64,000 bases of DNA, taken from Escherichia coli (lineage in GTDB: Bacteria; Pseudomonadota; Gammaproteobacteria; Enterobacterales; Enterobacteriaceae). The position numbers and the translations under genes were made by a program. Numbering within the stretch: position 1 is the stretch's first letter; each line of letters begins with the position of its first letter. The notes beneath the pieces were generated by a model. It was not told the origin of the DNA. It saw only the letters and a program-made list of their open reading frames with translations, and ran no database searches. The stretch lies in the NCBI RefSeq assembly GCF_003334815.1, contig NZ_QOWO01000003.1; one strand, 5' to 3'. Shown here piece by piece: positions 17,365-23,159 of the stretch.

Positions 17365-18237
17365 ATGCTGCCCGACTCATCAGTCCGTTTAAATAAATAC
17401 ATCAGCGAAAGCGGAATTTGCTCACGCCGCGAAGCGGATCGCTATATCGAGCAAGGCAATGTGTTCCTTAATGGCAAGCGAGCCACCATTGGCGATCAGG
17501 TGAAACCCGGCGACGTTGTGAAAGTAAACGGTCAGTTGATTGAACCTCGGGAAGCCGAAGATTTGGTACTTATCGCCCTGAACAAGCCCGTTGGTATTGT
17601 AAGCACCACCGAAGATGGCGAGCGCGATAACATTGTCGATTTCGTTAACCACAGCAAACGCGTGTTCCCGATTGGCCGCCTGGATAAAGACTCCCAGGGG
17701 CTGATTTTCCTCACCAATCACGGCGATCTGGTGAATAAGATCCTGCGTGCTGGCAATGATCATGAGAAAGAGTATCTGGTGACGGTCGATAAACCGATTA
17801 CCGAGGAGTTTATTCGCGGCATGAGTGCGGGGGTGCCAATCCTCGGGACAGTGACCAAAAAGTGCAAAGTTAAAAAAGAAGCGCCGTTTGTCTTCCGCAT
17901 TACCCTGGTGCAGGGGCTGAACCGTCAGATCCGGCGCATGTGCGAGCATTTCGGCTATGAAGTGAAAAAGCTGGAACGCACGCGCATCATGAACGTTAGC
18001 TTAAGCGGCATTCCGCTGGGGGAATGGCGCGATTTAACCGACGATGAGTTAATCGACCTCTTTAAGCTCATTGAAAATTCCTCTTCCGAGGTAAAACCTA
18101 AAGCGAAGGCCAAACCGAAAACAGCGGGCATCAAACGTCCAGTCGTTAAGATGGAAAAAACGGCGGAAAAAGGCGGTCGCCCGGCGTCCAACGGTAAGCG
18201 TTTTACCTCGCCGGGGCGTAAAAAGAAGGGGCGCTGA
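17365..18237 (+). CDS. rluF: 23S rRNA pseudouridine synthase RluF (290 aa)
   Basis: S4 domain plus RsuA-family pseudouridine synthase core with a Lys-rich C-terminal tail. Confidence 0.92.
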
Positions 18238-18369
18238 TTAACGCCTCAGACTGATGAAAACGGCCCAAAAGTGCCCGGACAGTCCCCTCGCCCCTTCGGG
18301 AAAAGGGTTAGGGTGAGGGGAAAATTGTGTTCACACTGACGAGTGAAAATCTCAGGCGTTGATTGTGGA

Positions 18370-18642
18370 TTAGCGCCTGCCGCGCGTCGACGTATTTGCT
18401 GACCAGCTAAATGACGCTTCAGGATCCGGTTTATAAGCCTGCTTTTTCTTCAACTGGCGGGCTTTTTTCGCTTCAGCCTCACGCTCAACCATTAATTTAT
18501 CGATGTAATCTTTCTTAATGCTGTTGGTTTCGGAGTTGGTCAATACGCGACCATGCGCAATCCGCGCCCGATCCAGCAGTGTTTTAAGTTCACGCTGCTC
18601 GCGTTCAGTCATCTCTTTTTGGGTAATACGGGGGAGTGCCAT
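18370..18642 (-). CDS. yjbD: Uncharacterized protein YjbD (90 aa)
   Basis: Small ORF product MALPRITQKEMTEREQRELK...; recognised as YjbD by sequence and position. Confidence 0.8.
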   Translation of the reverse strand: MALPRITQKEMTEREQRELKTLLDRARIAHGRVLTNSETNSIKKDYIDKLMVEREAEAKKARQLKKKQAYKPDPEASFSWSANTSTRGRR

Positions 18643-18894
18643 GATGGTGCCCTCAGTGAGCCAGAGAGTTCAGTGTACGGGAATTCGTTTGCGAGCAGAA
18701 CTGATAATATTCATTTTGCCTTCTCTTAACTATTTATCTCTTTCGATAATTAATTAGAGATGCAGATAAAAAAATTAAAGGCAATTATTCTCCGATAAAG
18801 ACGCTGGTTAACAGAGTACAGGCTCGTTTATTGATGAGCATAGTGACAAGAAAATCAATACGGCCCGAAATATAGCTTCCAGGCCATACAGTAT

Positions 18895-20244
18895 TTACTC
18901 AAACAAATTACTATGCAGTTTTTGCACCACCTGCTCGGCATCTTCGCCGGGCACCAGGAAGCACAGGTTATGGCTGGATGCGCCATAACAAATCATGCGA
19001 ATGTTGAACGGTTCCAGTACGCCGAATACCTCTTTGCCAACGCCGCAGGCTTTTGACAGGTCATTGCCAATCAACGCGACCAGCGCCAGACCTTCTTCCA
19101 CCTCCACCCGACACAGTGCGGAAAGCTCCATCAGCAGAGATTGCGTCAGCAACGTATCGCCAGTGGAGGTTGAACCGGTGGTATCAAGGGTTAATGCCAC
19201 GCTCACTTCTGACGTGGTGATTAAGTCTACCGAAATATTATGCCGCGCGAGGATGCCGAAAACTTCCGCGAGGAAACCGCGAGAATGCAGCATATTCAGG
19301 CTGTGCAAAGTGAGCAGAGTCTGATTGCGACGAAGCGCCAGAGCGCGGAACAGCGGCGGATTTTCAGTTTTATTGCACACCAGCGTACCACCTGCGCGTG
19401 GGTCTTTGCTGGAGCCGACAAAGACCGGGATATCGCTGCGTACTGCGGGTAGCAACGTTGCCGGATGCAGTACTTTTGCACCAAAAGTTGCCATCTCTGC
19501 CGCTTCGGCAAACGCGATTTCATCAATGCGTTTTGCTGCGGAAACTACGCGTGGATCGGTGGTGTAGATGCCCGGAACGTCGGTCCAGATATCAACACGA
19601 GATGCGTGTAAAGCCTCCGCCAGCAAGGCTGCCGTATAATCGCTGCCTCCACGGCCAAGCGTCGTTGTACGACCTTTATTTTCGCTACCGATAAATCCCT
19701 GGGTGATCACTAAGCCTTCATTGAGACGTGGGAGCAGCTGCAGCGCGGCCAGTTCCGCCAGCGCGGCTATATCTGGCTCTGCACGACCAAATCGGTCGTT
19801 GGTACGCATCACTTTACGTACATCAAACCACTGTGCCTGAACATCGCGTTCGCGCAGGATCTCAACAAACAGCAGGGTCGACATCAGCTCGCCGTGGCTG
19901 ACCAGCTCATCTGTCAGCGCCGGAGACGTTGCCAGCGCCGCCGCTTCTGCCAGAACAGTAATGTTCTCCAGCAGACGTTCAATCTCTTCACGGATAACGT
20001 TCGGGTAACGCAGACGTTCCAGAATGGCAAACTGGATGTTGCGGATAGCGTCGAGTTTTTCGAATCGCTCGCCAGGTTCCAGTCCTTCAGCTAAAGCGAC
20101 CAGCAGATTAGTGATACCAGCAGAAGCCGAGAGGACAACTAAACGCACGTTGGCATCAGAAAGCACAATATCAGCGCTGCGGTTCATGGCGTCAAAATCA
20201 GCTACGCTGGTACCGCCAAATTTGGAGACAACAATTTCAGACAT
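18895..20244 (-). CDS. lysC: Lysine-sensitive aspartokinase III (449 aa)
   Basis: Product MSEIVVSKFGGTSVADFDAMNRSADIVL...; aspartokinase fold with C-terminal ACT domains. Confidence 0.95.
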   Translation of the reverse strand: MSEIVVSKFGGTSVADFDAMNRSADIVLSDANVRLVVLSASAGITNLLVALAEGLEPGERFEKLDAIRNIQFAILERLRYPNVIREEIERLLENITVLAEAAALATSPALTDELVSHGELMSTLLFVEILRERDVQAQWFDVRKVMRTNDRFGRAEPDIAALAELAALQLLPRLNEGLVITQGFIGSENKGRTTTLGRGGSDYTAALLAEALHASRVDIWTDVPGIYTTDPRVVSAAKRIDEIAFAEAAEMATFGAKVLHPATLLPAVRSDIPVFVGSSKDPRAGGTLVCNKTENPPLFRALALRRNQTLLTLHSLNMLHSRGFLAEVFGILARHNISVDLITTSEVSVALTLDTTGSTSTGDTLLTQSLLMELSALCRVEVEEGLALVALIGNDLSKACGVGKEVFGVLEPFNIRMICYGASSHNLCFLVPGEDAEQVVQKLHSNLFE

Positions 20245-20261
20245 AACTACCTCGTGTCAGG

Positions 20262-20530
20262 GGATCCATTTTCAGCCTTGGCACAAGGGAAGAGCGGAAG
20301 ACGGGTGGGCGCAGAGCGATACTTCGCTACTATTTTCACCCAGAAGTGCTCCACCACTTGCGAAACGCCCGACTGCGAACGCTTCTGGTGACAACCCAGG
20401 GGATTCAGCCCCTGTAGCCGATGATGAACGTGGCCAGCCGTTCAATCACCTCGGCGATGCACCCCCTCAGGTGTTATCACAGGACTGGCTCCTCCAACAC
20501 CGTTACTTGGGCAACGCGCCTCTTCTGGCC
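20262..20530 (-). ncRNA. Lysine riboswitch (L box) in the lysC 5' leader
   Basis: Long structured leader upstream of lysC on the minus strand; the reverse complement contains conserved L-box-like segments (e.g. GAGGCGCGTTGCCCAAGTAACGGTGTTGGAGGAGCCAGTCCTGTGATAACACCTGAGGGGGTGCATCGCCGAGGTGATTGAACGGCTGGCCACG). Confidence 0.75.
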
Positions 20531-20768
20531 TGCGCTAGCGCAGGTAGTACATTTATAAATAAAGGGTGAGCGGGGCGGTTGTCAACGATGGGGTCATGCG
20601 GATTTTTCATCCACTCCTGGCGGTCAGTAGTTCAGCTAATAAATGCTTCACTGCGCTAAGGGTTTACACTCAACATTACGCTAACGGCACTAAAACCATC
20701 ACATTTTTCTGTGACTGGCGCTACAATCTTCCAAAGTCACAATTCTCAAAATCAGAAGAGTATTGCTA

Positions 20769-22418
20769 ATGAAAAACATCAATCCAACGCAGACCGCTGC
20801 CTGGCAGGCACTACAGAAACACTTCGATGAAATGAAAGACGTTACGATCGCCGATCTTTTTGCTAAAGACGGCGATCGTTTTTCTAAGTTCTCCGCAACC
20901 TTCGACGATCAGATGCTGGTGGATTACTCCAAAAACCGCATCACTGAAGAGACGCTGGCGAAATTACAGGATCTGGCGAAAGAGTGCGATCTGGCGGGCG
21001 CGATTAAGTCGATGTTCTCTGGCGAGAAGATCAACCGCACTGAAAACCGCGCCGTGCTGCACGTAGCGCTGCGTAACCGTAGCAATACCCCGATTTTGGT
21101 TGATGGCAAAGACGTAATGCCGGAAGTCAACGCGGTGCTGGAGAAGATGAAAACCTTCTCAGAAGCGATTATTTCCGGTGAGTGGAAAGGTTATACCGGC
21201 AAAGCAATCACTGACGTAGTGAACATCGGGATCGGCGGTTCTGACCTCGGCCCATACATGGTGACCGAAGCTCTGCGTCCGTACAAAAACCACCTGAACA
21301 TGCACTTTGTTTCTAACGTCGATGGGACTCACATCGCGGAAGTGCTGAAAAAAGTAAACCCGGAAACCACGCTGTTCCTGGTAGCATCTAAAACCTTCAC
21401 CACTCAGGAAACTATGACCAACGCCCATAGCGCGCGTGACTGGTTCCTGAAAGCGGCAGGTGATGAAAAACACGTTGCAAAACACTTTGCGGCGCTTTCC
21501 ACCAATGCCAAAGCCGTTGGCGAGTTTGGTATTGATACTGCCAACATGTTCGAGTTCTGGGACTGGGTTGGCGGCCGTTACTCTTTGTGGTCAGCGATTG
21601 GCCTGTCGATTGTTCTCTCCATCGGCTTTGATAACTTCGTTGAACTGCTTTCCGGCGCACACGCGATGGACAAGCATTTCTCCACCACGCCTGCCGAGAA
21701 AAACCTGCCTGTACTGCTGGCGCTGATTGGCATCTGGTACAACAATTTCTTTGGTGCGGAAACTGAAGCGATTCTGCCGTATGACCAGTATATGCACCGT
21801 TTCGCGGCGTACTTCCAGCAGGGCAATATGGAGTCCAACGGTAAGTATGTTGACCGTAACGGTAACGTTGTGGATTACCAGACTGGCCCGATTATCTGGG
21901 GTGAACCAGGCACTAACGGTCAGCACGCGTTCTACCAGCTGATCCACCAGGGAACCAAAATGGTACCGTGCGATTTCATCGCTCCGGCTATCACCCATAA
22001 CCCGCTCTCTGATCATCACCAGAAACTGCTGTCTAACTTCTTCGCCCAGACCGAAGCGCTGGCGTTTGGTAAATCCCGCGAAGTGGTTGAGCAGGAATAT
22101 CGTGATCAGGGTAAAGATCCGGCAACGCTTGACTACGTGGTGCCGTTCAAAGTATTCGAAGGTAACCGCCCGACCAACTCCATCCTGCTGCGTGAAATCA
22201 CTCCGTTCAGCCTGGGTGCGTTGATTGCGCTGTATGAGCACAAAATCTTTACTCAGGGCGTGATCCTGAACATCTTCACCTTCGACCAGTGGGGCGTGGA
22301 ACTGGGTAAACAGCTGGCGAACCGTATTCTGCCAGAGCTGAAAGATGATAAAGAAATCAGCAGCCACGATAGCTCGACCAATGGTCTGATTAACCGCTAT
22401 AAAGCGTGGCGCGGTTAA
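20769..22418 (+). CDS. pgi: Glucose-6-phosphate isomerase (549 aa)
   Basis: ORF 20763..22418; ATG at 20769 gives [19 protein letters not shown]...; phosphoglucose isomerase signatures present. Confidence 0.95.
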
Positions 22419-22421
22419 TCA

Positions 22422-22512
22422 TCGTCGATATGTAGGCCGGATAAGGCGTTCACGCCGCATCCGGCAACCGATGCCTGATGCGACGCGGTCGCGTCTTATC
22501 AGGCCTACAGGT
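22422..22512. repeat. REP element pair
   Basis: GTAGGCCGGATAAGGCGTTCACGCCGCATCCGGCAA ... GCGTCTTATCAGGCCTACA palindromic units. Confidence 0.85.
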
Positions 22513-22582
22513 CGATGCCGATATGTACATCGTATTCGGCAATTAATACATAGCACGATTGATTAAATAACCTTAATAACAA

Positions 22583-22610
22583 TGCCGACGTTATGTCGGC
22601 ATTTTTTTAT
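22583..22610 (+). terminator. Rho-independent terminator downstream of pgi
   Basis: Hairpin TGCCGACGTTATGTCGGCA followed by TTTTTTTAT. Confidence 0.75.
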
Positions 22611-22916
22611 CAGATAAATCCCCTTGTCTGTGATTTAACGGAAATCATACCATGAGGTTAATCCTAAAATAGATTTTTAATCGTTGTTTATTTCGGAAAA
22701 TACGCAGATTAATTGCTTTTGTTTTTATTTTAAGTTTATGATTTTTATTGTTATTTAAATATAAGTTGAAACTTATATTTGATATTCATTCCAATTATCC
22801 TAAAACGCCATCGCTAATTCCCCGCGCCGTAATTCGCATGCTTTAGTTGTGTATACTCGATCCCGCCCGAAATGTTTTTGGGTAAATCTCCATTCATTCA
22901 ATGAAGGGAAATTGTT

Positions 22917-23159
22917 ATGAAAAAAGTTCTGTATGGCATTTTTGCCATATCTGCGCTTGCGGCGACTTCTGCGTGGGCTGCACCTGTACAGGTGGGCGAA
23001 GCGGCAGGGTCGGCAGCAACGTCGGTTTCGGCGGGGAGTTCCTCCGCGACCAGCGTCAGCACCGTAAGCTCGGCGGTGGGTGTCGCGCTTGCGGCAACCG
23101 GTGGCGGTGATGGTTCTAATACCGGGACCACCACAACCACGACCACCAGTACCCAGTAA
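22917..23159 (+). CDS. yjbE: Secreted Ser/Thr/Gly-rich small protein YjbE (80 aa)
   Basis: Signal peptide [21 protein letters not shown] followed by a low-complexity S/A/T/G-rich region ending in a poly-Thr run; first gene of yjbEFGH. Confidence 0.85.

Follow-up and report, generated by a model that had tools for sequence, protein, structure and literature searches.

The lysC L-box, or LYS element, of Bacillus subtilis was reportedly described in 2003 by Grundy, by Sudarsan and by Rodionov, and crystal structures of the lysine riboswitch of Thermotoga maritima asd are said to have been obtained in 2008 by Serganov and by Garst. L-box is the Bacillus name for the lysine riboswitch, and a kissing interaction between the loops L2 and L3 is a hallmark of the class. 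Crystal structures are also reported to show a K-turn in P2 and a helix-loop contact between P2 and P4. The lysine riboswitch of Escherichia coli lysC has reportedly been studied by Caron et al. in PNAS in 2012.

The published numbering of the E. coli lysC RNA starts at the transcription start and places G309 at the G of the lysC AUG (Ghosh et al. 2024, PMC10946432). When lysine is absent, an antisequestering stem permits translation and keeps the region of rut and of the RNase E sites hidden; in its presence P1 forms, the Shine-Dalgarno (SD) sequence is sequestered and RNase E cuts at Site1 and Site2 (PMC10946432). In vitro, Rho in combination with NusG terminates transcription at G309, with lysine raising termination from 31% to 56%, and deletion of nucleotides 250-253 relieves early termination (PMC10946432). 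Fusions of lysC to gfp transcribed from the lacUV5 promoter are repressed 2- to 8.5-fold by lysine, and this repression is weaker in a rho-R66S background and, for the shortest fusion, in rne-131 (PMC10946432). A Rho termination score of 6.1 has been given for lysC (PMC5499598), and ensemble deconvolution of DMS data revealed multiple conformations of the riboswitch in living cells (PMC13271884).

The DNA analysed here is a stretch of 64 kb, referred to in its entirety as the window. Its minus strand at positions 20245-20550 is, almost certainly, the 5′ leader of the E. coli lysC mRNA with its lysine riboswitch, working as an OFF/ON switch in the manner proposed below. The element is already known: it is the annotated and experimentally dissected lysine riboswitch of E. 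coli lysC. No evidence contradicting this identity was encountered, and the weak points are limited to details.

The lysC gene and the extent of its leader

The gene that follows the leader encodes lysine-sensitive aspartokinase III, and its product scored 767.9 bits against the NCBIfam equivalog NF006570 (lysine-sensitive aspartokinase 3; cut-off 455). With G309 as the G of the AUG (PMC10946432), the transcription start falls at window position 20550 and the leader is 306 nt long, leader position n being window position 20551 - n. The published numbering is self-consistent on this sequence, as Site1 (250-253) lands on UCUU and rut (~240) on the C-rich, G-poor stretch at leader 231-270. The following features frame the leader:

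18858..18889, minus strand: terminator-like hairpin just past the lysC stop (consensus scan only)
18895..20244, minus strand: lysC coding sequence, lysine-sensitive aspartokinase III, 449 aa (ORF list, NCBIfam NF006570, RefSeq)
20242-20244, minus strand: lysC AUG (sequence)
20245..20550, minus strand: lysC 5′ untranslated leader, 306 nt (transcription start from the published numbering)
20281..20320, minus strand: stretch rich in C and poor in G at leader 231-270 (50% C, 17% G), corresponding to the published rut site for Rho loading (composition; role from PMC10946432)
20298-20301, minus strand: RNase E Site1, UCUU, leader 250-253 (role from PMC10946432)
20557..20585, minus strand: putative lysC promoter, -35 TTGACA at 20585-20580, 17-nt spacer, -10 TTATTT at 20562-20557 (read relative to the published start)

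An earlier note on this DNA had described about 300 nt of non-coding leader ahead of lysC, which agrees well with the 306 nt found at 20245-20550. The interval that it assigned to the leader, 20245-20600, holds in its larger part only, 20245-20550 being leader and 20551-20600 promoter. The putative promoter hexamers, assigned from the sequence in combination with the published start site, pair a perfect -35 element (TTGACA) with a weak -10 element (TTATTT), and it is because of this poor -10 that the lysC promoter went unflagged in a consensus promoter scan. At the opposite end of the gene, the hairpin at 18858..18889 is likely the 3′ end of the lysC transcription unit.

The mechanically called ORF of the neighbouring gene pgi begins on the plus strand with the TTG at 20763 and comprises 551 aa; the RefSeq coding sequence has 549 aa, implying a start at the ATG at 20769. 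The same position, 20769, is also the end of the plus-strand ORF 20566..20769.

A full-length lysine aptamer upstream of lysC

All 4,227 Rfam models were scanned at a permissive threshold against window positions 18000-23000, and RF00168 (Lysine riboswitch) emerged as the one dominant match, at 20336-20532 of the minus strand, where it scored 99.5 bits with E = 2.4e-26 (gathering score 30). The alignment is untruncated, spanning model positions 1-182 of 182, and the score, at more than three times the gathering threshold, is far beyond chance. It is the single lysine riboswitch match in the 64-kb window. The five helices P1-P5 around the junction, as well as the conserved strands AGAGGCGC, CGCCGA, UGUCAC and GGAG, were all found in the model alignment. 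The aptamer lies upstream of lysC on the same strand, with 91 nt between its end and the AUG. Its parts are as follows:

20336..20532, minus strand: lysine riboswitch aptamer, leader 19-215, five-way junction with P1-P5 (Rfam RF00168, covariation and the RefSeq riboswitch feature)
20522..20527, minus strand: 5′ strand of P1, CAGAAG, leader 24-29 (Rfam alignment; invariant)
20485..20489, minus strand: L2 loop, GCCAG, leader 62-66 (exact complement of L3)
20433..20437, minus strand: L3 loop, CUGGC, leader 114-118 (exact complement of L2)
20341..20346, minus strand: 3′ strand of P1, CUUCUG, leader 205-210, the switching strand (Rfam alignment; invariant)

In the RefSeq annotation of the matching E. 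coli locus, lysC is preceded by a 'riboswitch' feature of 197 nt, on whose far side lies the divergent gene pgi; the feature consists of the same 197 nt as the RF00168 match. Window positions 20200-20650 are 100% identical to E. coli chromosomes and were matched in 5,426 of 5,426 complete E. coli genomes, with at least 99% identity in 5,421 of them. The lysC leader region is duplicated in one of the 5,426 genomes, one of the two places being on a plasmid, and in one genome no place covers at least 80% of the leader query.

The proposal of the earlier note that a lysine riboswitch precedes lysC, together with the search of the reverse complement with the Rfam Lysine covariance model that it suggested, is thereby borne out: the match is full-length at more than three times the gathering score, lysC lies downstream, RefSeq agrees, and both the helices and the L2-L3 contact covary, as described below. 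The 'L-box helices' that it had recognized are likewise real according to RF00168; the name, however, is a Bacillus term, and the E. coli leader is devoid of a Bacillus-type terminator.

Covariation of the aptamer in related leaders

Relatives of the leader were sought with the exact pattern AGAGGCGC...CGCCGA...UGUCAC in one genome per species, which gave at least 120 matches. Those listed (at least 120) are spread over Clostridia, Bacilli, Gammaproteobacteria and other groups, and among them 11 loci belong to Enterobacterales or close relatives and have a LysC orthologue (73-90% identical) directly downstream. These derive from Acerihabitans, Enterobacter sp., Klebsiella sp., Rosenbergiella, Pantoea stewartii, Ca. 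Pantoea persica, Pantoea sp. IMH, Serratia oryzae, Mangrovibacter, Pseudescherichia vulneris and one MAG. Each of the 11 related leaders independently reached the RF00168 threshold, with scores of 55-104 bits.

Together with the leader of the window they form a set of 12, onto whose alignment the Rfam structure was mapped for the analysis of covariation. Standard pairs occupy 92.9% of the cells of the aptamer pairs. As many as 20 pairs are altered on both sides, a number reached by none of 500 shuffles and to be compared with 5-11 in controls with slid partners; the covariation score was 0.291, against 0.149 in shuffles (0/500 reach the observed value) and 0.057-0.099 in the slid controls. The covariation is located in P2, P2b and P3 and, in part, in P4. 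Neither P1 nor the base of P5 varies across the 12 leaders, P1 (24-29/205-210) being 100% paired in 12/12. The junction strands are also invariant, for AGAGGCGC, CGCCGA and UGUCAC by construction, since these three served as the search pattern; the helix covariation is not affected in this way.

The distal part of P5 (window 20362-20385, minus strand; leader 166-189) is variable in length, with an extension of approximately 18 nt in E. coli relative to the Rfam consensus. Longer structured segments occupy the same place in Enterobacter sp. BIGb0383 (58 nt), Klebsiella sp. BIGb0407 (97 nt) and Pantoea sp. IMH (150 nt). These long segments (loci L055:1463-1842, L060:9101-9519 and L113:3533-4006) are strongly structured, and the inserts of the three relatives gave no Rfam family at the gathering threshold. 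The score of L113 against the Lysine model is down to 55 bits.

The two loops of the kissing contact change in concert. Across the 12 leaders the combinations GCCA/UGGC, GCCG/CGGC, ACCA/UGGU and ACCG/CGGU were observed, and the mean Watson-Crick run between L2 and L3 was 4.58 for cognate compared with 3.45 for non-cognate loops, the observed value being reached by 4 of 5000 permutations.

Conservation of the aptamer bears on the reading in which the element is degenerate or re-purposed, its fold having been kept and its lysine sensing lost, so that lysC would be regulated at the promoter only or by another ligand. Regulation of lysC at the promoter level does exist (Liao and Hseu 1998, cited in PMC10946432). 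However, the family-conserved junction strands are all intact and do not vary among Enterobacterales, the score amounts to three times the gathering threshold, riboswitch-dependent repression by lysine is retained from the heterologous lacUV5 promoter (PMC10946432), and lysine-dependent in-line probing has already been reported. We consequently regard a loss of lysine sensing as highly improbable, and retain the reading of a functional lysine aptamer.

Predicted mutually exclusive helices in the expression platform

Three blocks downstream of the aptamer, GGUGGAGCGCUUCUGGGU, CGCUCUUCCCUUGUGCCAAGGCUGA and CCUGACACGAGGU, are kept across genera, and the last of these, which holds the SD region, is nearly invariant in the Enterobacterales leaders. 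The strands discussed in this section are the following:

20348..20361, minus strand: predicted anti-sequester (ON) helix, 5′ strand, leader 190-203 (partition-function folding, conservation)
20283..20295, minus strand: predicted anti-sequester helix, 3′ strand, leader 256-268, GCUCUUCCCUUGU (partition-function folding; block conserved across Enterobacterales)
20282..20288, minus strand: predicted SD-sequestering strand, CCUUGUG, leader 263-269 (constrained partition-function folding)
20250..20256, minus strand: SD strand, CACGAGG, leader 295-301, with GAGG at 298-301 (sequence)

The leader was folded as an ensemble (ViennaRNA) in three ways, i.e. with the aptamer pairs of the Rfam model imposed to mimic the lysine-bound state, with P1 forbidden as a proxy for the ON state, and unconstrained. 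When the aptamer was locked, the helix between CCUUGUG (263-269) and CACGAGG (295-301) appeared with a probability of 0.23-0.64, and the anti-sequester helix had a probability of 0.00. Conversely, with P1 forbidden or in the unconstrained ensemble, the SD-sequestering helix dropped to 0.00 and the 190-203/256-268 helix reached 0.98. Strand 190-203 overlaps the 3′ strand of P5 and the GGAG core of J5/1, and therefore the ON helix excludes the folded aptamer. The SD was predicted to be unpaired with a probability of 0.09-0.33 in the OFF state, 0.20-0.35 in the P1-forbidden ON proxy and 0.29-0.49 without constraints, which is a modest difference.

Whole-leader minimum free energy (MFE) folding without constraints gave a structure marginally more stable than shuffled sequences (z = -1.90) in which P1 is absent. 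Such an outcome is expected, because the ligand-bound state is stabilized by tertiary contacts and by the ligand, both of which the energy model ignores. As the MFE alone is insufficient to identify the element, the covariance model and the constrained ensembles were used.

The SD-sequestering helix is invariant in sequence, with 97% of its cells paired across the leaders, and the anti-sequester helix is maintained in 10 of 12 leaders, Acerihabitans showing one compensatory change from A-U to G-C. In the ON-state helices, 3 pairs are altered on both sides compared with 1.8 in shuffles, a difference that lacks significance. The platform helices are nearly invariant, and covariation consequently neither supports nor refutes them; conservation and thermodynamics are what support these predicted helices. 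The individual base pairs given for the ON state were derived here independently of published drawings and should be read as those of a folding model. In the predicted ON state, RNase E Site1 (250-253) would reside in an internal loop between two stable helices, being 98% unpaired, in contrast to the published model, in which Site1 is double-stranded in the ON state (PMC10946432). This difference between duplex and internal loop is a detail of modelling and involves no difference in sequence.

An alternative anti-P1 register, 196-202/252-258, with Site1 partly duplexed, was obtained upon folding nucleotides 196-330 alone and was rejected, its probability being 0.01 in the full-leader ensemble. 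Perfect complementarity over 7 nt links leader 3-9 (ACUACCU) with the SD region at 299-305 (AGGUAGU); it was likewise set aside as probably due to chance, as 8.7% of shuffles match or beat it and it is absent in relatives. The same complementarity (window 20542-20548 and 20242-20253, minus strand) dominated some of the predicted folds. A local hairpin CCUUG/CAAGG (263-267/271-275) is a candidate third state; it is kept in most leaders and disrupted in Acerihabitans, and its ensemble probability is 0.01-0.18.

A lysine-dependent intrinsic (Rho-independent) terminator within the leader, as in a Bacillus-type L-box, would be an alternative to this platform, and E. coli and B. subtilis indeed have aptamer class and regulated gene (lysC) in common, the B. 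subtilis mechanism being summarized in PMC10946432. Yet a consensus scan of the minus strand from the aptamer to the AUG (20245-20336) returned no terminator-like site, i.e. no G+C-rich hairpin with a U-run, which shows that the leader is not of the Bacillus terminator type. The conserved downstream blocks pair with the SD strand instead, and in vitro transcription gives mostly full-length product with as well as without lysine unless Rho is added (PMC10946432). That single-round transcription lacking Rho yields no short product dependent on lysine has already been reported. An intrinsic terminator thus has a negligible chance of being the mechanism, and the SD-sequestering platform is preferred.

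A small hairpin 5′ of P1

A further structure lies outside the Rfam model:

20529..20544, minus strand: small hairpin CCUGCG-CUAG-CGCAGG, leader 7-22 (constrained and unconstrained folds)

The hairpin ends 1 nt 5′ of P1. Of the 12 Enterobacterales leaders, 9 have an equivalent at a distance of 0-2 nt from P1; at least five different stem sequences are represented, and the mean z was -2.35 compared with 0.05 ± 0.89 for random control windows of 28 nt. Equivalents also occur in Rheinheimera and Alishewanella. The loci with an equivalent are L060, L062, L069, L087, L097, L101, L112, L113, L019 and L116; L055 and L081 lack the hairpin, and in L040 it is weak.

It seems rather unlikely that this hairpin serves the lysC riboswitches of enterobacteria as a functional accessory element. 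If it were, it might stack on P1, or might act as a stem-loop that blocks the 5′-end-dependent entry of RNase E. Were 5′-end entry blocked, decay would depend only on the lysine-gated internal sites. A description of the hairpin was not found in the literature searched; the 2012 study by Caron and co-workers stood outside that search and may already draw it. This small covarying hairpin is possibly the sole undescribed detail of the leader.

Open reading frames over the leader and other Rfam matches

Two plus-strand ORFs, 20024..20569 (181 aa) and 20566..20769 (67 aa), appear in the ORF list with the coordinates quoted in the earlier note, where they were considered spurious. This judgement is supported, as RefSeq annotates no coding sequence over them at the matching E. 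coli locus and stop-free runs are unconserved in the 12 leaders, the longest run on either strand differing in frame and in length (22-126 aa). Moreover, leader indels in the same set are not multiples of three, and leader substitutions follow base-pair compensation rather than codon periodicity. An unannotated ORF of 57 aa with a TTG start (20272-20445, minus strand) lies on the lysC strand within the riboswitch region and is presumably spurious as well.

That the region is protein-coding, with 20024..20569, 20566..20769 or the 57-aa frame at 20272..20445 as real genes and the RNA match as incidental, can be given next to no credence: the ORFs exist and 181 aa is long for chance, but the 181-aa frame is antisense to both lysC and a structured RNA rich in G+C, a setting in which stop-free runs are expected, and the lack of a RefSeq coding sequence at the leader, the shifting frames and lengths, the non-triplet indels and the pair-compensating substitutions all speak against it.

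Elsewhere in the window, the intergenic region between pgi and yjbE holds Rfam matches to naRNA4, a REP-type repeat that scores on both strands, and to STnc430, an enterobacterial sRNA family. Four further naRNA4 matches (REP/BIME-like) exceed the gathering score. The Rfam matches are:

22435-22505 (plus strand) and 22571-22720 (minus strand): naRNA4 and STnc430 in the pgi-yjbE intergenic region
5352-5429, plus strand: naRNA4
5450-5527, plus strand: naRNA4
32106-32176, plus strand: naRNA4
36335-36405, plus strand: naRNA4

Proposed mechanism

In the proposed scheme, the aptamer (leader 19-215) would bind L-lysine in its five-helix junction. In the OFF state, bound lysine would hold P1 and P5 closed, leaving CCUUGUG (263-269) free to pair with CACGAGG (295-301) and thereby to hide the SD, and the C-rich segment around 240-260 would be exposed to RNase E and Rho. 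The expected outcome is blocked translation initiation, Rho termination at and beyond the start codon, and degradation of the mRNA. In the ON state, without lysine, the 3′ side of the aptamer (190-203) would instead pair with 256-268, occupying the sequestering strand, so that the ribosome binding site would be free and aspartokinase III made. The identity and covariation of the aptamer, its kissing loops, the predicted mutually exclusive helices with their conservation and the absence of an intrinsic terminator are results of the present analysis; the dependence on lysine, the cleavage by RNase E and the termination by Rho are taken from published experiments on the same RNA (PMC10946432).

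A textbook cis-regulatory RNA in this way accounts for the gap of approximately 300 nt upstream of lysC and for the two plus-strand ORFs that overlie it. Through the riboswitch, aspartokinase III would be shut down at plentiful lysine at the levels of translation, transcription (Rho) and mRNA decay (RNase E) together. Existing knowledge is left unchanged; the worth of the analysis lies in a correct annotation and in a positive control for the recognition of riboswitches from raw sequence.

Comparison with known systems

The described E. coli lysC riboswitch and the element of the window are the same, with 100% DNA identity, the same 197-nt RefSeq feature, and positions of G309, Site1 and rut that map onto the sequence. 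With the lysC L-box, or LYS element, of B. subtilis it has in common the aptamer class, the ligand, the regulated enzyme and the OFF logic based on stabilization of P1. The platforms differ, in that the Bacillus platform consists of an intrinsic terminator and an antiterminator, whereas the E. coli leader has neither and relies on SD sequestration, RNase E and Rho instead. The leader is consequently placed within the lysine aptamer family and outside the Bacillus terminator subtype. The T. maritima asd riboswitch shares with that of E. coli the five-helix junction, the L2-L3 kissing loops and the conserved junction strands; the junction and the kissing loops were examined here with the covariance model and by covariation. 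P5 of E. coli is, relative to the family consensus, extended by approximately 18 nt, compared with inserts of 58-150 nt in some Enterobacterales. The closest parallels in mechanism are found in E. coli itself: in thiC (TPP) and ribB (FMN), the ligand also exposes a rut site within the riboswitch, which leads to early Rho termination in addition to translational control (PMC10946432, PMC5499598). These two belong to other aptamer classes and respond to other ligands, and the same papers describe for lysC, in addition, a direct exposure of RNase E sites.
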